IMG/VR virus record: IMGVR_UViG_3300029581_000022
Span: 1-42,414 of that record
DNA: 42,414 nt
Source of the DNA: a virus
Strand: one strand, 5' to 3'
Shown here: piece after piece, positions 239 to 36,096 of the stretch
Layout: every line of letters begins with the position of its first letter
How positions within the stretch are numbered: the stretch's first letter is position 1
Program-made: the position numbers and the translations under genes
The notes under the pieces: model-generated
Told to the model about the DNA's origin: nothing
Seen by the model: the letters and a program-made list of their open reading frames with translations, nothing else
Database searches by the model: none

Positions 239-1372
239 TCAATACTTCATCTTCCGCATTTCGCGCAACAGATAATCCGGGTCATTGTGGGAGACGTACT
301 TGTTTGCTGTGGTGGAGAAATTTTTGTGACCCAAGATGGCTTGCACGGCAGTCTTTTCCAGGCCGCACTCCACCATCTTGCTGCTGGCCGTGTGGCGCAG
401 CGTATGCGGATGCACCCCCTCTATATGGCACTCCTGCATCAAGGCCCGAAACTTTGTAGCCACGTTGCGCTTGTCCAGCTTTGTACCGGCTTTGGACGGT
501 ATCAGCCACTCACAGCCGCTGTCAAGCATCCAAAAGGCAATGATTTTATAAATTGGGTCCAAAATAGGGATAATGCGGTTTTTGCCCGCCTCGGTCTTTT
601 CGCCGCCCTGCATATACCGCTCTTTTAGATGCACATCGTCGCAGCGCATGGAGAGCAGCTCATCGATACGCATACCGGTGTAGAGCAGCACCATTGCGAT
701 TTGTGCTGTCTGCCCAAGCTTCGGGTCGTCTTGCCGGCTGCTGATCTGCTCGATCTCTTGAGCGGTCAAGGTTCGCTCTGCCTTGCCTGTAGCCGCCGGG
801 AGCTGCAAGAGCATGGCATAGTTTTTGTTTATGATGTCCTGAGCCATTGCCCACTCGCAGATCTGGCTGAAAAGTGTGCGCTGCTTTTCGCAGGAGCTGC
901 GGGAGAGGCCCTTTTCCACCATCTGGTCAATCACTTGTTGATAGTCTGCGGCTTTTAAGTCTCGGAGCTGTCGGTCATACAGCAGCGAAGCCTTTGCATA
1001 GGCCAGCTCATAACCCTTTTTCATGTCAGTGCCGAGCTTTTCAAATTTGGGCTGCGCTTTCCATTGGGCGTAGGCATCCGCAAAAGTGCATTTCAGACGC
1101 GCTGCGGGGGTGTTCTGGGCGTTGTAAGCGTCCAGTGCTTGTACTGCTTCACCCGGCGTCGCAAACGTCCCCAGAACGTCTCGCTTGGCTGTCAGGGCCA
1201 CATACGGCTTTGACCTCGTCCCGCTCAACTTATATACACTGCCGCTGCCCTTTGGGCGGCGGCGCTTTTTTCTTTGCTGCGGGGCGGCTTCGGGCTGCTT
1301 CTTGCCGCAGTATGGGCAAAAAGATGCATCATCCGGTATTTCCCGACGGCAGCAGGCGCGAATACACCTCAA
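239..1372 (-). CDS. int: Tyrosine recombinase / phage integrase with N-terminal zinc ribbon
   Basis: 377 aa. N-terminus CCRREIPDDASFCPYCGKK. C-terminal catalytic signature HTLRHTASSKMVE...ILGHKNFSTTANKYVSH (R..H-x-x-R..Y type). TTG start preceded by GAGGTGA. Adjacent to the att core. Confidence 0.9.
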   Translation of the reverse strand: MRCIRACCRREIPDDASFCPYCGKKQPEAAPQQRKKRRRPKGSGSVYKLSGTRSKPYVALTAKRDVLGTFATPGEAVQALDAYNAQNTPAARLKCTFADAYAQWKAQPKFEKLGTDMKKGYELAYAKASLLYDRQLRDLKAADYQQVIDQMVEKGLSRSSCEKQRTLFSQICEWAMAQDIINKNYAMLLQLPAATGKAERTLTAQEIEQISSRQDDPKLGQTAQIAMVLLYTGMRIDELLSMRCDDVHLKERYMQGGEKTEAGKNRIIPILDPIYKIIAFWMLDSGCEWLIPSKAGTKLDKRNVATKFRALMQECHIEGVHPHTLRHTASSKMVECGLEKTAVQAILGHKNFSTTANKYVSHNDPDYLLREMRKMKY

Positions 1373-14948: not shown

Positions 14949-15341
14949 ATGAACCAAATTTTTCTTGTCATCGGCGCAACGCTTTGCTACGTCGGCGGAT
15001 TCGGCATCATGATTTATCTTTTGGGCGTCCTAACCGAACTGTGCATCGAAATCTGGGACAGTAATTTTAGACAGATTTGTGTTCGATTCCAAATCGCGCC
15101 GGGCGATGTTTCATACTTTGCCCAGAATAAAAAAGACATTGAAGCAGCACTTGAGAAACAACGCATTCGGTGGCCGAACACGGACGATGCATCTTTCGGG
15201 TGGTGGAACTGCCCAAGATGCAGCGCGCCGAACCGATACGTCAGCGAAAGCAAATCAGTTGCATATTGCCGCTGCTGCGGGCAAGCTGTCGATATGGATT
15301 ACTACAGGAGGCATGCCAATGATTCGCAGATGGACACCTGA
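14949..15341 (+). CDS. Membrane-anchored zinc-ribbon protein
   Basis: N-terminal TM IFLVIGATLCYVGGFGIMIYLLGVL. C-terminus CPRCSAPN...CRCCGQ. Confidence 0.5.
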   Translation: MNQIFLVIGATLCYVGGFGIMIYLLGVLTELCIEIWDSNFRQICVRFQIAPGDVSYFAQNKKDIEAALEKQRIRWPNTDDASFGWWNCPRCSAPNRYVSESKSVAYCRCCGQAVDMDYYRRHANDSQMDT

Positions 15342-15840
15342 CACCGACACACCAAAGCCTGACAGCGGCGTGGATTACCGCACCGTCAAGGCGTGGTTCC
15401 AGCAGTGCCGCGACCTTGCGGCAGCTATCGAAGTCCAAAAGCAAAAAATACAGCGCATCCGGGACGTGGCCGAAAAATGCACCCAGAGCCTGAGCGGGAT
15501 GCCTGCAGGTGGTGGCAATGGGGACAAGGTGGGCTTTGCTGTAGAGCAGCTGGACACCGAGCGCCGACAGCTTCAGAGGATGGAGACGGACCTGTGTAAT
15601 TTGCGTGTCGAGGCCACCAGGCGGGCATACTGCCTGATAGCCGAGCCGGAATGCGCTGAAGCAATTTGCGAGCACTATGTCATAGGAAAATCTCACAAGG
15701 AAATCGCAAAAGAAGTCGGCGTGTGCGGGGCAGAAGTGGTCTATCGGCGAATCAAACGCGGATGCATGGCCCTGGCCGAGATATGGGACGAGTTTTCTGA
15801 CGTGCAAAGTGTACAACATGCACAAGAAAACACAGCGTGA
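15319..15840 (+). CDS. Sigma-70 region-4-like / DUF1492-like transcriptional regulator (candidate late activator)
   Basis: C-terminal HTH ICEHYVIGKSHKEIAKEVGVCGAEVVYRRIKRGCMAL. ATG 15319 lies 7 nt after AGGAGG. It is the last gene before the packaging module. Confidence 0.55.
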   Translation: MIRRWTPDTDTPKPDSGVDYRTVKAWFQQCRDLAAAIEVQKQKIQRIRDVAEKCTQSLSGMPAGGGNGDKVGFAVEQLDTERRQLQRMETDLCNLRVEATRRAYCLIAEPECAEAICEHYVIGKSHKEIAKEVGVCGAEVVYRRIKRGCMALAEIWDEFSDVQSVQHAQENTA

Positions 15841-16199: not shown

Positions 16200-16230
16200 A
16201 CAGCCCTGGCGGAGAACCAGGGCTGTTTTA
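16200..16230 (+). terminator. Rho-independent terminator
   Basis: acagccctgg-cggagaa-ccagggctgt (10-bp stem) followed by tttta. Confidence 0.7.
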
Positions 16231-16234
16231 TATG

Positions 16235-16304
16235 GCCGCCTGAGCGCAGTTTGGAGCGCGTGTCAGCTGAGATATTGCTGGCTGGTTCGAGTCCAAGGGC
16301 GGTG
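16235..16304 (+). ncRNA. Degenerate tRNA-like element / pseudo-tRNA
   Basis: Acceptor gccgcct/gggcggt (2 GU pairs). D arm gcgc-agtttgga-gcgc. T loop ttcgagt with only a 3-bp stem. The best anticodon arm has a 9-nt loop (tgagatatt). Confidence 0.25.
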
Positions 16305-16310
16305 TTTTAT

Positions 16311-16383
16311 ACTCCGGTAGCTCAAGTGGTAGAGCAGCGGTCTCCAAAACCGCATGTTGCAGGTTCGAGTCCTGCCGGGAGTG
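16311..16383 (+). tRNA. tRNA-Trp (anticodon CCA)
   Basis: 73 nt: actccgg-ta-gctc-aagtggta-gagc-a-gcggt-CTCCAAA-accgc-atgtt-gcagg-ttcgagt-cctgc-cgggagt-g. One G:G mismatch in the acceptor stem. CCA is not encoded. Confidence 0.75.
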
Positions 16384-16507
16384 CTTGCATGATCTGACGA
16401 GAGCGGGGAGTGCAATAGCGGGGCATCCAGCCGCGAAAGTTCTGGACGCAGCAGCACCCACCGTTTACGCCTGTCCGTCAAACTGAATGCACGGGTGCTG
16501 CTTATAT

Positions 16508-16643
16508 GCCGTCATAGCTCAACTGGCAGAGCGCCGCCCATTTAAGGCGGGACAACATTGGTGATACCACGGGAACATCACTGCACAGCCAACCACTGCG
16601 CACATCCATTCCGTGGGTGCTGGTTCGAATCCGGCTGGCGGCA
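16508..16643 (+). tRNA. tRNA-like gene with a 68-nt insertion at the variable-loop position; anticodon loop CAUUUAA (UUU, Lys-type, but A at position 33)
   Basis: Acceptor gccgtca/tggcggc (1 GU). D arm gctc-aactggca-gagc. Anticodon arm ccgcc-CATTTAA-ggcgg. T arm gctgg-ttcgaat-ccggc. Discriminator a. Nt 16551-16618 lie between the anticodon and T arms and contain an 8-bp stem (16567-16574 / 16609-16616). Confidence 0.5.
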
Positions 16644-16657
16644 CATTCGATATTCTG

Positions 16658-16690
16658 ACCGTTCGGATTTTCCGGGCGGTTTTTCTTTTG
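16658..16690 (+). terminator. Rho-independent terminator after the tRNA island
   Basis: accgttcgg-atttt-ccgggcggt (2 GU pairs) followed by tttttctttt. Confidence 0.65.
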
Positions 16691-16714
16691 TCTGAGTTTA
16701 GAGAGGTGGTGGCG

Positions 16715-17182
16715 GTGGGCGCACGGCGGCTGACAGATAAGCAAAAAAAGAAGATCGTTGCGGACTATGTGCAGCTCCAAAGCTACCGCGCAGCCGCAAA
16801 GCTGAACGATGTTTCGGACGCGACCGTCAAGAAAGTCGTAAAGGAAGACCCGGAGAGTGCGCGCTTGTGCGCACAAAAAAAGCGGGAAAACTCGAAGGAC
16901 ATGCTTTCTTACATGGAGAGCAAGCAAGGAGAAGCACAAGAGCTTCTCGGGCTGTACCTGAAAGCGATGGCTGACCCAGACAAGATCGCGGAAGCAACAC
17001 TGCCACAGCTGTCCACGGCGTTCGGCACCATCGTGGACAAGTTTGCTATGCTGGGAGACCAGAGCGGCATAGAAGTCCCGGACGATGGCCTGCTTGAGGC
17101 CCTGAACGCTGCCGCAGACATCAGCCCGCCGGACGACGTGGATATGCTGCCAGAGGAAGAGGACGACAATGCGGAAAAGTAA
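16715..17182 (+). CDS. terS: Terminase small subunit
   Basis: RRLTDKQKKKIVADYVQLQSYRAAAKLNDVSDATVKKV is an HTH. The C-terminus is acidic. It lies immediately upstream of, and overlaps, terL. The start is uncertain (GTG at 16706, 16709 or 16715 after GAGAGG). The track's start at 16613 would overlap the tRNA-like gene. Confidence 0.65.
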   Translation: MGARRLTDKQKKKIVADYVQLQSYRAAAKLNDVSDATVKKVVKEDPESARLCAQKKRENSKDMLSYMESKQGEAQELLGLYLKAMADPDKIAEATLPQLSTAFGTIVDKFAMLGDQSGIEVPDDGLLEALNAAADISPPDDVDMLPEEEDDNAEK

Positions 17183-18416
17183 CGGTTTTCGCTGGAAAGC
17201 CCTCAGCCAGCGGCAAAAGCAGGTCCTGAGCTGGTGGACGCCGCAGAGCGCATACAGCGGCTACAACGGCATCATTGCAGATGGCGCTATTCGCTCGGGC
17301 AAGACCTTTGCCATGAGCTTTTCGTTCGTACAGTGGGCCATGACCTGCTACAGCGGCCAGCAGTTTGCCATGTGCGGCAAGACCATTGCCAGCTTCCGGC
17401 GCAATGTGCTGGGAACGCTCAAGCAGCAGCTTTCAGCCCGTGGCTACAACGTCAAGGAGCGCCGGGCAGAAAACTGCATGACCATCAGCAAGGGCGGCAG
17501 AATCAACGAGTTTTACTTTTTCGGCGGCAAGGACGAGAGCAGCCAAGACCTGATCCAGGGCATCACGCTGGCCGGGGCATTCTTTGACGAGGTGGCCCTG
17601 ATGCCGCAGAGCTTTGTCAACCAGGCCACGGCCCGTTGCTCTGTCACCGGGTCGAAGTTCTGGTTCAACTGCAACCCGGGCAGCCCGCAGCACTGGTTTT
17701 ATCTGGAGTGGGTGCGGAAATGCCGTTCCCGCAAGATGATGTATCTCCATTTCACGATGGACGACAACCTGTCACTTTCCGAGGACATCAAGGCCAGATA
17801 CCGCAGCCAGTACAGCGGCGTTTTCTATCAGCGCTACATTCTGGGCCTGTGGACCGTGGCAGAGGGCCTTGTGTATGACATGTTCGACCGCAAGAAGCAC
17901 GTCGTTGATGTGCTGCCGGAGCTGTCTCAGAAAAGCGCCTATGTGGCGTGCGACTTTGGCACCCAGAACGCAACGGTGTTCCTGCTGCTCCAGAAGCAGG
18001 CAGATGCAGACTGCTGGATCGTCACCCGGGAGTACTACTACAGTGGCCGCGAACAGAAGCGGCAAAAGACCGTGGGCGAGTACGTTACAGACCTCAAGGC
18101 GTGGTTGGGCGGTCTCAAGCCGGAAAGGATCATCGTTGACCCCTCTGCCCTGCCCCTGATTACGGAGCTGCGCAAGAACGGCTTTACCCAGACGCCCGCA
18201 AACAACGACGTTCTGAGCGGCATTCTGGACGTGCAGACCATGCTGCAGACCGGGAGGATGAAGATCTACAAAGACTGCAAGCACACGCTGGAAGAGTTCG
18301 GCGTGTACGCTTGGGATCCAGATAAAGACGACACCGTGCTGAAGGTCAACGACCACTGCATGGACGCTATCCGCTACTTCGTGCGCACAAAGCGCCTTGT
18401 GAAACTGAGGGATTGA
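17169..18416 (+). CDS. terL: Terminase large subunit (PBSX/Terminase_3-like)
   Basis: Walker A DGAIRSGKT. 415 aa. Positioned between terS and portal. Confidence 0.9.
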   Translation: MRKSNGFRWKALSQRQKQVLSWWTPQSAYSGYNGIIADGAIRSGKTFAMSFSFVQWAMTCYSGQQFAMCGKTIASFRRNVLGTLKQQLSARGYNVKERRAENCMTISKGGRINEFYFFGGKDESSQDLIQGITLAGAFFDEVALMPQSFVNQATARCSVTGSKFWFNCNPGSPQHWFYLEWVRKCRSRKMMYLHFTMDDNLSLSEDIKARYRSQYSGVFYQRYILGLWTVAEGLVYDMFDRKKHVVDVLPELSQKSAYVACDFGTQNATVFLLLQKQADADCWIVTREYYYSGREQKRQKTVGEYVTDLKAWLGGLKPERIIVDPSALPLITELRKNGFTQTPANNDVLSGILDVQTMLQTGRMKIYKDCKHTLEEFGVYAWDPDKDDTVLKVNDHCMDAIRYFVRTKRLVKLRD

Positions 18417-19801
18417 TTTTGAGCACTGTATACACATTCCAGACCTTCCAGCAGGCGCAAGCCGCCGGGGAACAGTCTGATTTTATCCGGCGGTTCGTGC
18501 AGCAGCACTGCAGTTCCGGACCCTACAAGATGGCGCTGGATGCCGACCTGTACAACGCACAGAAAAACCCGGGAGCTGAACGCTTCGCGCAGGCTTACGC
18601 TTTGATGCTGAAACGCCTATCCAAAAACACCAAGCAGGACACCCCACACCCCGATATGGTCAAGAGCAATCTTTTCCGGCGGCTCAACAAGCAGCGGGCG
18701 ACCTACTCCCTCGGAAACGGCGTGGTCTTTGCGGACGATGGCGTGGACAAGGGCAAGCTTGGGCAGAACTTTGACGAGCAGATCCAGAAGGCCGGGTATT
18801 TCGCCCTGATCCACGGCGAGAGCTTCGGATTCTGGAACAACGACCATCTGGTGGTTTTCAAGCTGACCGAGTTCGCTCCCCTGTACGATGAAAAGACAGG
18901 CTTTTTGCAGGCAGGCGTGCGCTTCTGGCGGCTGAACCCTGACACGGATATGCACTATATTCTGTACGAGCTGGACGGCTTTACTGAGTACACGGAAAGC
19001 AAAATCGGAAATGTGATGCAGGAGACAACGCCGAAGCAGGCGTACAAGAGCGTTACCGTCACCACGCCCGGCGGCGGGCTGGAAAGCGTGGAGGGCGAAA
19101 ACTACAGTGCTCTTCCCATTGTGCCGCTGTGGGGCTCCGACCTGCACCAGAGCACCCTTGTTGGGCTGAAAGCCTACATTGACAACACCGATCTGGTGAT
19201 GTCCGGCTTCTGCAATGACCTGCATGACTTTTCGGAGATCTACTGGCTGTGCGAGAACTTCAACGGCATGACCGATGACGAGCTGCAGGAGTTCCTTGTC
19301 AAGCTGAATCTGTACCACATTGCAGGCGCAGACACCAGCCAGGGCGGCAAGATCACCCCCTACACCACCGAGATTCCTGTAGCGGCCCGGGATACTCTGC
19401 TGGAGCTGCTCCACGCCCGGGTGTATGAGGACTTCGGAGGTCTGGATGTGCACTGCGTCAGCGCGGACAGCACCAACGACCATCTGGATGCAGCCTATGA
19501 ACCTCTGAACCAGAACGCGGACGACTTCGAGGCGCAGGTCAAGCCGTTCATTCGGCAGGTCTGCGCATTGGCTGGCTTTGACAACGCTATGCCGGCATTC
19601 AACCGCAGCAAGATCACCAACACAGCCGAGCAGGTCAGCATGGTCATTTCCGAGGCCGCCATCATCGGGCAGGACATGGCCATTGACCTGCTGCCCAACC
19701 TGACCCCGGAACAAAAGGAGCAGGCCAAGGCCGCGCTGATGGCTGAGAGCGCAACACGGGAGACCGTGGACGAGAAAGAAGGGGCAAAAAATGAGACATG
19801 A
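18413..19801 (+). CDS. Portal protein (SPP1 gp6-like)
   Basis: 462 aa, directly after terL. TTG start at 18413, or more likely TTG 18419, which lies 8 nt after GAGGGA. Confidence 0.85.
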   Translation: MILSTVYTFQTFQQAQAAGEQSDFIRRFVQQHCSSGPYKMALDADLYNAQKNPGAERFAQAYALMLKRLSKNTKQDTPHPDMVKSNLFRRLNKQRATYSLGNGVVFADDGVDKGKLGQNFDEQIQKAGYFALIHGESFGFWNNDHLVVFKLTEFAPLYDEKTGFLQAGVRFWRLNPDTDMHYILYELDGFTEYTESKIGNVMQETTPKQAYKSVTVTTPGGGLESVEGENYSALPIVPLWGSDLHQSTLVGLKAYIDNTDLVMSGFCNDLHDFSEIYWLCENFNGMTDDELQEFLVKLNLYHIAGADTSQGGKITPYTTEIPVAARDTLLELLHARVYEDFGGLDVHCVSADSTNDHLDAAYEPLNQNADDFEAQVKPFIRQVCALAGFDNAMPAFNRSKITNTAEQVSMVISEAAIIGQDMAIDLLPNLTPEQKEQAKAALMAESATRETVDEKEGAKNET

Positions 19802-23184: not shown

Positions 23185-23261
23185 GCCGCTTTAGCTCAGG
23201 TTGGCAGAGCGCCGGATTTGTAATCCGGGGGGCGTGGGTTCAAGCCCCACAGGCGGCACCA
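23185..23261 (+). tRNA. tRNA-Thr (anticodon UGU), CCA encoded
   Basis: gccgctt-ta-gctc-aggttggca-gagc-g-ccgga-TTTGTAA-tccgg-ggggc-gtggg-ttcaagc-cccac-aggcggc-a-cca. All arms are canonical. Confidence 0.9.
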
Positions 23262-34760: not shown

Positions 34761-34899
34761 TTTTTGATTTTATCCAACCTCACATTTTTACGGCACAGGC
34801 AGCCGCACACCTCACGGTGAAGATAGGCATTTTGGGAGCAGGCTAGTACACTCCGCAGGGGGCGATGGAAAGCCTGTACAGCTAAAAGGAGGTATCCCA

Positions 34900-36096
34900 A
34901 TGAAGAGAGCTGGAAAGCTCTTTGATACGTTAATCTCAGATGATAATTTGTTGCGAGCCATCGACGAAGTGAACCGCACCCACCACTGGAATCGAGGCCA
35001 CAAGCCCAACACCTGTACGGCGTGGGTGGAGGAGACCAAGGCGCAGCGGGTGGAAGACCTGCGGCGAATACTCGTCGGCGGTTTTGAGCCGAAAAAGCCC
35101 CATGTCAGCCAGCGATGGGACGCCAATGCCCGGAAATGGCGCACCATCAGCGAACCGGCGCAGTGGCCGGACCAGTATGTGCATCACGCCCTCATTCAGG
35201 CGCTGCAGCCGAAGATGATGCGGGGAATGGATTTTTACTGCTGCGGCTCCATCCGGGAGCGCGGGCCGCACCGGGAAAAGAACGCCATCCAGCGATGGAT
35301 GAAGTACGACCGCAAGGGGATGAAGTACGAGTTTTGTGGCGACATCCGCCACTTCTACGACAGTCTGACCCCGGAAGTCGTCATGGCCCGGATGCGGCAG
35401 CTCTACAAGGACTGCCGTGTCCTCGACCTCATCCGGCGCATCATCCGGGACGGCGTAAAGCTGGGGACGTACACTTCCCAGTGGTTCGCCAACGCCGTCT
35501 TACAGCCCCTTGACCGGCTCATCCGGGAGAGCGGCTATTGCAAACACTACGCCCGGTACATGGACAACATGACGGCATTCGGTCCCAACAAACGCAAGCT
35601 GCGGAAGCTCCGCTTACTGGTCGAAGACTGGCTTGACGCCCACGGCCTGCAGCTCAAGGGCGACTGGCAGGTGTTCCCGGTGGCAAAACCGCAGCGCAAA
35701 GAGCCGCTGCTCCCGCCCCGGCGTGGCTATGAGCGCACCAAAGGCCGCCTGCCGGATGCCGTAGGCTATCGCTACGGCAGAGGGTACACCATTCCCCGCA
35801 AGCGGAATCTGCTGCACATCAAGCGGGCGCTGGCGCGGTATCGCAAGCGCAGGCGGCAGGGGAGGCCCATCACGCCCAGAGCGGCAGCAAGTCTGCTCTC
35901 GCGCCTCGGACAGCTCCGGCACTGCAACAATTATCATCTCTATCAATGGCTGTTTCGGGGAGAGCGGGTCGTCCGCGACCTGAAGCACGTCGTCCGAGAG
36001 CATCGGAGAAAGGAGAACCTGACGTGGACTATGTTTTTGGCACAGAGGGCGGCGCTGAAGTCCTCAAGACCATCGGCGACGCTCACACCGGTCTGA
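34900..36096 (+). CDS. DGR-type reverse transcriptase (motif C reads YMDN instead of YxDD)
   Basis: RT motifs: GDIRHFYDSL (A), GVKLGTYTSQWFANAVLQPLD (the DGR-typical SQ motif) and YARYMDNMTAF (C; AAC codon at 35566-35568). AAAGGAGG lies 7 nt before the ATG. Confidence 0.85.
   Translation: MKRAGKLFDTLISDDNLLRAIDEVNRTHHWNRGHKPNTCTAWVEETKAQRVEDLRRILVGGFEPKKPHVSQRWDANARKWRTISEPAQWPDQYVHHALIQALQPKMMRGMDFYCCGSIRERGPHREKNAIQRWMKYDRKGMKYEFCGDIRHFYDSLTPEVVMARMRQLYKDCRVLDLIRRIIRDGVKLGTYTSQWFANAVLQPLDRLIRESGYCKHYARYMDNMTAFGPNKRKLRKLRLLVEDWLDAHGLQLKGDWQVFPVAKPQRKEPLLPPRRGYERTKGRLPDAVGYRYGRGYTIPRKRNLLHIKRALARYRKRRRQGRPITPRAAASLLSRLGQLRHCNNYHLYQWLFRGERVVRDLKHVVREHRRKENLTWTMFLAQRAALKSSRPSATLTPV

Follow-up and report, generated by a model that had tools for sequence, protein, structure and literature searches.

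A tRNA-like element with a structured variable-region domain and a non-canonical anticodon loop in phages from human-gut samples

The IMG/VR virus record IMGVR_UViG_3300029581_000022 was analysed over its positions 1 to 42,414 (the window), a 42.4-kb temperate siphophage-type genome of 55.6% G+C. Between its late regulator and large terminase genes lies a cluster of RNAs consisting, in this order, of a mini tRNA-like RNA, a tRNA-Trp, a 123-nt spacer, a tRNA-like element and an intrinsic terminator. The subject of this study is the tRNA-like element, in which 68 nt (16551-16618) separate the anticodon arm from the T arm. The arms, the 68-nt gap, the 8-bp stem inside it and the C-A-UUU-A-A anticodon loop had all been described in the original prediction, which was made from the letters alone, and a second reading of the sequence confirmed each of them. 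The parts of the element are as follows.

16498..16507, plus strand: 5' leader CTGCTTATAT, kept in all relatives, where it marks the slot
16508-16643, plus strand: the tRNA-like element, 136 nt, a full cloverleaf with the 68-nt insert
16508..16514, plus strand: 5' strand of the acceptor stem, GCCGUCA, pairing with 16636-16642 (7 bp, one U.G)
16517..16532, plus strand: D arm, GCUC-AACUGGCA-GAGC
16534..16550, plus strand: anticodon arm, CCGCC-CAUUUAA-GGCGG, with the loop at 16539-16545, A33 at 16540 and UUU at 16541-16543
16551..16566, plus strand: 16-nt linker GACAACAUUGGUGAUA, whose UGGU (16559-16562) is the 5' strand of a proposed pseudoknot
16567..16574, plus strand: 5' strand of the basal insert stem, CCACGGGA, pairing with 16609-16616 (8 bp, one G.U)
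16582..16602, plus strand: inner hairpin UGCACAG-CCAACCA-CUGCGCA, whose ACCA (16592-16595) is the 3' strand of the proposed pseudoknot
16609..16616, plus strand: 3' strand of the basal insert stem, UUCCGUGG, supported by the minimum-free-energy fold and by double changes
16617..16618, plus strand: GU junction, the equivalent of variable-loop positions 47/48
16619..16635, plus strand: T arm, GCUGG-UUCGAAU-CCGGC, 100% paired
16636..16643, plus strand: 3' strand of the acceptor stem, UGGCGGC, and discriminator A73 (16643), with no encoded CCA

The tRNA model of Rfam (RF00005) matched positions 16508-16643 exactly, with 45.4 bits against a gathering score of 29 (E = 1.2e-6 for the whole window), and aligned the 68 nt as a single insertion after model position 44. 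Scores of 41-48 bits were obtained across all insert types in relatives, with the complete RF00005 cloverleaf of 7-bp acceptor, 4-bp D, 5-bp anticodon and 5-bp T stems (99-100% paired). ARAGORN called only the tRNA-Trp (16311-16384) and a tRNA-Thr(UGU) (23185-23261) in the window and left the element uncalled; once the insert had been removed in silico, it returned tRNA-Lys(ttt) at every junction tried. The intron mode of ARAGORN proposed a tRNA-Val(tac) with an anticodon-loop intron for the native sequence, which is implausible and was rejected as an artefact. The minimum-free-energy fold of the 136 nt is a cloverleaf with a long extra arm (z = -2.1). The GU directly before the T stem is invariant in nearly all family members, and its U48 may form a Levitt pair with A15.

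The element belongs to a family of at least 281 occurrences and at least 155 distinct sequences in phage and metagenome contigs, and all real matches among those listed by the viral and metagenome pattern scans come from human-gut samples. The terminase of the window recruits 510 IMG/VR contigs. Among the best 80 of these 510 relatives (96-98% identity), about half carry the element, 27 have the tRNA-Trp alone, two have a tRNA-Thr(UGU) in the slot and five an 8-nt-loop tRNA. The decamer CTGCTT[A/C]TAT stands 5' of the element, of the tRNA-Thr(UGU) or of the 8-nt-loop tRNA, depending on the relative, and the leader CTGCTTATAT is presumed to be an RNase P leader. Since the element is also found beside terminases of 20-60% identity, it moves between mosaic phage backgrounds. 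The sole matching GenBank phage record, MT839005, is an unannotated fecal phage contig that carries the element at 97% identity.

Compensatory changes in relatives, which the original prediction had named as a check, were found in every helix, including the insert stem. A covariance model built on type A (74 distinct sequences, 97% mean identity) gave family members 75-173 bits and ordinary tRNAs at most 45 bits. Within type A, 99.5% of the pair cells are standard, against 31-46% when the partners are slid by 1-3 columns, and the observed covariation was reached by none of 500 shuffles. For 34 sequences taken across types, in an alignment fitted to the model, pairing was 95.8% against 27-43% in the slid controls; both sides had changed in 20 of 35 pairs, a level again reached by 0/500 shuffles. 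These double changes fall in the acceptor stem (three pairs), D stem (one), anticodon stem (two), T stem (three), basal insert stem (six of eight) and inner hairpin (five of six). The tRNA body looked the same in an independent count made position by position.

The exchanged pairs can be read directly from the sequences. The acceptor stem is 100% paired, with U.G, C-G or U-A at position 5, C-G or U-A at position 6 and A-U or G-C at position 7. A compensated D stem, GUUC/GAAC, occurs in L203; the anticodon stem is found as CAGCC/GGCUG, CCGAC/GUCGG and CCUCC/GGAGG, and the T stem as GCUGG/CCAGC, GCCGG/CCGGC, GAUGG/CCAUC and GGCGG/CCGCC. In the insert, the outer four pairs of the basal stem are CCAC/GUGG, CAUC/GAUG or CACG/CGUG according to type. 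Because compensatory changes keep all stems, and with an anticodon loop that is invariant within type A, the degenerate pseudo-tRNA that had been offered as an alternative is refuted. A site acting at the DNA level (attP or pac) was also rejected, as the compensatory changes keep RNA pairing and the integrase lies 15 kb away. Judged by these alignments, the element is a genuine gene under selection, whose product is a structured RNA derived from a tRNA.

Five insert types (A-E) were distinguished, essentially unalignable in sequence and built on one shared layout: a 16-nt linker, a basal stem, internal loops, an apical hairpin and GU before the T stem. The distance between the anticodon and T arms in relatives, 53-87 nt, is the sum of the 16-nt linker, an arm of 35-69 nt and the 2-nt junction, and the size of the variable-region domain across the family is about 64-85 nt. 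The linker consensus G-W-CAAC-R-Y-UG-R-UGA-Y-A is common to all five types. Out of its 13 windows of 4 nt, only positions 9-12 are exactly complementary to a stretch of the apical loop in every type. The pairing reads UGGU:ACCA in types A-C and covaries to UGAU:AUCA in D and E; among the matches listed, 148 of the 155 distinct sequences have the complement. An H-type pseudoknot between 16559-16562 and 16592-16595, which would compact the insert domain, is therefore supported but not proven. The alternative linker pairings GUUGG:CCAAC and GUGA:UCAC were discarded because they are not kept across types. Pairing of the linker UGGU with the NCCA 3' end, in the style of a T-box riboswitch, was discarded as well: types D and E use UGAU:AUCA, and covariation between N73 and the linker is absent.

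Inserts, bodies and loops occur in different combinations. Type-E inserts are found with CAUUUAA or with a 6-nt loop, type B with CAUUUAA or GAGUUAA, and L190 joins a short-D-loop body to a type-C insert. Two copies with D-like and A inserts stand about 600 nt apart in one contig (L286:9503-9638 and L286:10126-10261). Judging by these combinations, body, loop and insert behave like modules that can be exchanged. Another contig, L342, has two pattern matches to the element. At L012:3341-3476 the 3' internal strand is replaced and the extra arm is a near-perfect hairpin of about 17 bp, while in L144:1259-1379 a deletion of 15 nt between short direct repeats has taken the apical ACCA loop with it.

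Of the loops of type A, only the anticodon loop is without variation (0/7 positions among the 74 sequences). The discriminator varies freely, as do positions 16, 17 and 20 of the D loop and two positions of the T loop; G18 and G19 are invariant in type A, and types D and E as well as L190 have D loops of 5-6 nt without GG. Among the matches listed, the loop is C-A-UUU-A-A in the great majority, G-A-GUU-A-A, A-A-UUU-A-A in one sequence, or a 6-nt, Ala-like (U/G)-U-UGC-A that occurs in some type-E members. What is altered is position 33 or, among the short loops, position 38, and a canonical 7-nt loop with U33 was seen in 0/155 distinct sequences of this set. Exact-pattern scans found neither U33 with the insert nor A33 without it, within the fixed anticodon-stem sequence that these patterns prescribe, so that they are not exhaustive.

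The aminoacylation identity set is incoherent, combining a Thr-type acceptor with a Lys-, Asn- or Ala-type anticodon. Lys identity relies on UUU and A73, with U35 as the main LysRS determinant; Asn identity on GUU and G73; and Thr identity on G1-C72, C2-G71, G35 and U36, with N73 no strong determinant (PMC9976931). The discriminator of the 155 distinct sequences among the matches listed is A in 65, U in 88, and G and C in one each, and all GUU forms among them have U73. This drift of N73 between A and U, together with the U73 of the GUU forms, argues that no Lys or Asn charging constraint acts on the family. A normal tRNA-Thr(UGU) fills this slot in L008 and L009, and the element matches it over the first 25 nt and along the 3' acceptor strand; the best full-length matches of the insert-deleted form in annotated phages are tRNA-Thr, and the anticodon arm matches phage tRNA-Lys and tRNA-Asn. 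To judge from these matches, the body comes from one Thr-type tRNA that gained a Lys/Asn-type anticodon arm. An origin of the 5' and 3' halves from two unrelated tRNA fragments, raised earlier as a way for the proposal to fail, does not hold, because both ends match one slot tRNA-Thr(UGU) and the halves covary.

The U-turn on which ribosome binding depends is enforced by U33 (PMC13276492). Its replacement by A33, the 6-nt loops, an incoherent identity and, in types D and E, a D loop lacking G18/G19 together argue that the element is not an ordinary decoder.

The surroundings of the element in the window are listed below.

239-1372, minus strand: integrase, followed by repressors and anti-repressors
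after the repressor region: replication module, two DNA methyltransferases and RusA
15079-15840: late regulator
16311..16384, plus strand: tRNA-Trp(CCA), canonical, the constant companion of the element
16657..16691, plus strand: intrinsic terminator with an 11-bp stem and a U run, directly 3' of the element and before the putative small terminase
17169-18416: large terminase
18413-19801: portal

The gene at about 16700-17182, between the RNA cluster and the large terminase, had no family match and is a putative small terminase from its position. The terminator is conserved in relatives with the same arrangement. We take the position of the RNA cluster, from late regulator to terminase, to be the accessory "moron"/tRNA slot of lambdoid phages. 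The host is probably a member of the gut Bacillota, as suggested by the 55.6% G+C and by the closest cultured terminases, which belong to Streptococcus, Clostridium and Lactobacillus phages (52-58% identity). An exact-protein lookup of the terminase returned metagenome contigs only. In a scan of a bacterial genome collection, eight of nine matches were chance matches in coding DNA. The sole real one, L203:6768-6919 (CAVEID010000025.1), lies on a 24-kb contig of a gut metagenome-assembled genome labelled Oxalobacter sp. and carrying a tRNA-Gly(CCC), a type-C element and a tRNA-Trp. This contig is probably phage or prophage; its binning may be wrong, and it gives no reliable host.

Directly upstream of the tRNA-Trp is the mini tRNA-like RNA, 70 nt long (16235-16304), with a 7-bp acceptor (GCCGCCU/GGGCGGU), a D arm with GG, a 3-bp T stem and a UUCGAGU loop, and without a variable loop. 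Its "anticodon" arm is wholly different in relatives, with some pairs compensated. Neither ARAGORN nor Rfam calls it a tRNA, and the family model of the element gives it 15-23 bits in many loci. Before the cluster, at 16201-16229, a 9-bp G+C-rich hairpin (CAGCCCUGG...CCAGGGCUG) followed by UUUU was noticed by eye and is not listed by the terminator scan; it looks like a terminator, as found upstream of antitermination-controlled late operons. A hammerhead in the spacer 16385-16507 (CUGACGAG...CGAAA) was considered and rejected, as its stems misfit by hand, its position 17 would be G and Rfam has no match.

The 8-nt-loop tRNA found in the slot of five relatives follows CTGCTTCTAT (L017:1932-2008, L054:1577-1653, L078:2912-2988, L079:2871-2947 and L081:2525-2601). 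It is 77 nt long, with a Trp-like body, an encoded CCA and an A.A mismatch in the anticodon stem; its loop is C-U-A-UUG-A-A, and ARAGORN reports "tRNA-?(Asn|Gln)(attg)". By analogy, this loop has the architecture of +1 frameshift/quadruplet-decoding tRNAs, with an extra nucleotide 33.5 and U33 kept. Elsewhere in the window, the canonical tRNA-Thr(UGU) at 23185-23261 stands within the structural gene module, and a tRNA-Met occupies a comparable site at L063:8782-8857, so that there appears to be a second tRNA slot in the structural module of these phages. Downstream of large tail or fibre-like open reading frames, an RT-18 RNA (34808-34891; Rfam 63.7 bits against a cutoff of 41.3) is directly followed on its 3' side by a reverse-transcriptase gene (34900-36096; weak RVT_1, 27.6 bits against a cutoff of 29.6). 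The two probably form a diversity-generating retroelement, and no link between them and the tRNA-like element was found.

Our leading reading, which we hold tentatively, is that the element mimics a tRNA without decoding and probably serves as bait or inhibitor for host defences that target tRNAs; its function we infer from the strict anticodon-like loop, the lesions adjoining the anticodon, the alternation with tRNA-Thr(UGU) and the patchy, mobile distribution. The RNA would be co-transcribed with the tRNA-Trp up to the terminator at 16657-16691. With an intact acceptor/T half, it would then be processed in the manner of a tRNA, by RNase P, RNase Z and the CCA-adding enzyme. Pairing of the apical loop with the linker would form a compact pseudoknotted knob beside the junction of the anticodon stem and D arm, and the RNA would present a tRNA-like anticodon arm to a tRNA-recognising factor. 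The A33 (or the short loop) and the bulky variable domain would block normal cleavage and ribosomal use, so that the element might titrate or block the factor and spare the real tRNAs. In a more specific and more doubtful form of the proposal, these RNAs might be modular RNA-only immune antagonists, each a decoding-dead Lys-, Asn- or Ala-type bait joined to a pseudoknotted knob that would trap or sterically jam a host nuclease or toxin directed at tRNAs, with both baits and knobs exchanged among phages in an arms race.

The PARIS nuclease AriB provides a precedent, since it cleaves exactly the Lys(UUU), Thr(UGU) and Asn(GUU) tRNAs, and phage T5 evades PARIS by supplying resistant variants of the Lys, Thr and Asn tRNAs (PMC12409363). 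More generally, mutations predicted to evade tRNases are found in the anticodon loops of phage tRNAs (PMC10264068). The occupants of the slot, namely the element with a UUU or GUU loop or the plain tRNA-Thr(UGU) of L008 and L009, correspond to the AriB target trio.

Several points weigh against the mimic proposal. The PARIS precedent is from E. coli, the host here being a probable gut Bacillota, and the element is without the AriB recognition sequence U36AAUC|A41, which the nuclease cuts at 40|41. The Ala-like loop class falls outside the Lys/Thr/Asn set. A stoichiometric decoy must be abundant. The variable domain, strongly conserved as it is, points to a specific partner of its own, and the decoy model names none. 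Support for the pseudoknot consists of one covarying position and conservation. Finally, a tRNA with a much larger insertion in the variable loop (Spinach) is charged and works on ribosomes in vivo (PMC5397188), which means that the insert alone is no proof of lost decoding.

The competitor that survives best, unlikely as we consider it, is a tRNA-scaffolded effector RNA, in which the pseudoknotted variable domain would be an aptamer for a protein or ligand, or a regulatory RNA, and the tRNA body would serve only processing by RNase P and RNase Z and nuclease protection, in the manner of engineered tRNA-scaffold RNAs. Such a role fits the architecture of linker and domain, kept with covarying helices across five unrelated insert types, the anticodon loops that are swapped or cut to 6 nt while the domain stays, and the dispensable G18/G19 of the D loop in types D and E. 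A passive scaffold, however, would not be expected to have the anticodon loop as its most conserved loop (0/7 positions vary), with an anticodon-like triplet always kept. Moreover, the insert interiors are almost wholly different between types, so that a single shared ligand is not obvious. A permissive Rfam scan of 16200-16800 (E<=10) returned only tRNA and sub-threshold noise, with no ribozyme, riboswitch, aptamer or small RNA in the insert; a sub-threshold Hrs13 match (24 bits against a cutoff of 52) was driven by the terminator. Antisense targets of the insert or the anticodon loop in the phage were not found either, the longest matches being at most 11 nt and TTAAATG occurring at chance frequency.

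Less probable still is a nuclease-resistant replacement tRNA that is charged and decodes AAA/AAG (or AAU/AAC), with A33 and the bulky domain blocking an anticodon nuclease. Without its insert the sequence is called as tRNA-Lys(UUU), LysRS relies chiefly on U35 (PMC9976931), the tRNA with a Spinach aptamer in its variable loop is aminoacylated and supports translation in vivo (PMC5397188), and the T5 variants of Lys, Thr and Asn tRNAs show that PARIS can be evaded in this manner (PMC12409363). Against these stand the A33, which removes the U-turn nucleotide (PMC13276492), and the discriminator, which drifts between A and U and is U73, not G73, in the GUU forms (PMC9976931). With a Thr-type acceptor stem, charging would risk Lys-to-Thr mistranslation; the members with 6-nt loops cannot decode, and types D and E are without the G18/G19 elbow contacts. 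The earlier suggestion of a counter-defence decoy or replacement tRNA remains a hypothesis with circumstantial support, from the slot trio and the non-canonical loops. Between its two forms, we favour the non-decoding mimic because of the conserved, probably pseudoknotted and swappable insert, the Ala-like 6-nt loop and a discriminator without Lys or Asn constraint.

We see very little chance that the gene is an interrupted tRNA gene from which 64-68 nt are removed, by self-cleavage or by RNases and a ligase, to leave a 72-nt tRNA. The insert does sit exactly where a variable loop of 4-5 nt would restore a class I tRNA, and the A33 loop and the insert always occurred together in the exact-pattern scans. 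It nevertheless lies outside the anticodon loop and is far too short for a group I intron, and the original prediction had rightly judged the place wrong for a bacterial group I tRNA intron. No group I intron, hammerhead, twister, pistol, hatchet or HDV-like match was obtained at E<=10 in 16200-16800, no bulge-helix-bulge was seen on inspection of the consensus structure, and no RNA ligase or splicing endonuclease was found among the window proteins scanned, which cover part of the genome. A spliced product would also keep the A33 or the 6-nt loop.

An equally slim chance is given to a recoding tRNA, whose A directly 5' of the anticodon (A-UUU, A-GUU) would extend pairing to a fourth base or alter the frame, with frameshifting at AAA-U or AAC-U. 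In favour of this idea, tRNAs for Lys and Asn are well known as shifty decoders, and in five relatives the same slot has the 8-nt-loop tRNA C-U-A-UUG-A-A. Quadruplet decoders, however, need an 8-nt loop and keep U33, unlike the 7-nt loop without U33 of the element (PMC4764823). The members with 6-nt loops do not fit, and no frameshift-dependent gene was identified, a systematic search not having been made.

A non-functional relic, that is a tRNA gene hit by an insertion and drifting, is scarcely credible: it would account for the missing ARAGORN call and for occasional degenerate singletons (the L144 deletion, the L170 mismatches), but 96-99.5% of the base pairs are kept via compensatory changes (155 distinct sequences among the matches listed), the anticodon loop is invariant, and five insert types with one architecture are spread over mosaic backgrounds.

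The element can be described as a non-coding RNA of tRNA origin, or as a phage accessory tRNA, whose architecture is distinctive and previously unreported. It has the cloverleaf structure of a tRNA and departs from a canonical one in its anticodon loop, in the size of its variable region and in the coherence of its identity. No description of such an element was found in a full-text literature search, and Rfam 15 holds no specific family for it. To our knowledge, the phage tRNAs known to counter tRNA cleavage are all ordinary decoders with point changes. The element adds an abundant, well-conserved natural tRNA with a structured variable-region domain of about 64-85 nt and a systematically non-canonical anticodon loop, in which evolution has used the variable loop as an insertion platform, as earlier done only by engineers. 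It also marks an annotation gap, since ARAGORN makes no call and the matching GenBank phage record is unannotated. Should it act as a decoy, it would be the first inhibitor of anticodon nucleases made of RNA alone, and a handle on the matching defence systems in the poorly studied gut Bacillota.

Bacterial group I introns of tRNA genes measure at least 200 nt, have a P1-P9 core and sit in the anticodon loop; the insert, of 64-68 nt in the variable region and with no match at E<=10, is not one of them. An archaeal-type intron was excluded by the absence of a 3-4-3 bulge-helix-bulge in the structures inspected and of an endonuclease among the proteins scanned, and small self-cleaving ribozymes by the absence of a family match in the permissive Rfam scan of 16200-16800. 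Like tmRNA and YrlA (RF02553), the element joins a tRNA-like acceptor/T module to extra structured or pseudoknotted domains, and YrlA-type RNAs also occur in phages next to tRNA genes. However, tmRNA and YrlA are without a normal anticodon arm and have the extra domains in its place, whereas the element keeps this arm. A tmRNA was ruled out by a negative ARAGORN tmRNA search of the window, by the lack of a tag reading frame and by the anticodon arm, and a YrlA RNA by its only match, of 17.8 bits against a cutoff of 69, which lies off the element at 16257-16361 over the tRNA-Trp.

Class II tRNAs (Leu, Ser, bacterial Tyr and Sec) and allo-tRNAs with long variable arms (PMC5389517) likewise have an extra helix between the anticodon and T arms of a complete cloverleaf. 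In nature such a variable arm is a plain stem-loop that measures at most about 20 nt and begins directly behind 44/45, in contrast to the unpaired 16-nt linker, 8-bp stem, internal loop, second hairpin and probable pseudoknot of the element, 68-87 nt in total. Its anticodons are UUU, GUU and UGC and not those of Leu, Ser, Tyr or Sec. The linker, the two stacked helices and the anticodons rule out a class II tRNA.

With the T5 tRNAs the element shares its nature as a phage-encoded tRNA-type RNA in an accessory slot, the three anticodon identities at the locus (UUU and GUU in its loops, Thr UGU in the tRNA that can take its place) and changes in the anticodon arm, next to the site of tRNase action. 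A nuclease partner of the element is hypothetical. T5 encodes canonical decoders of 76 nt that carry point substitutions at 39/41 and 16, unlike the element with its A33 or 6-nt loop, its structured variable domain of 64-85 nt and its lack of a coherent aminoacylation identity. In build, the element resembles the V-Spinach tRNA (PMC5397188) and tRNA-scaffold recombinant RNAs, which carry a large folded domain in the variable loop of an otherwise intact tRNA and are processed and stabilised as tRNA. These are man-made and have a canonical anticodon loop, and V-Spinach still decodes; the element, in contrast, is natural, maintained and equipped with a non-canonical loop.

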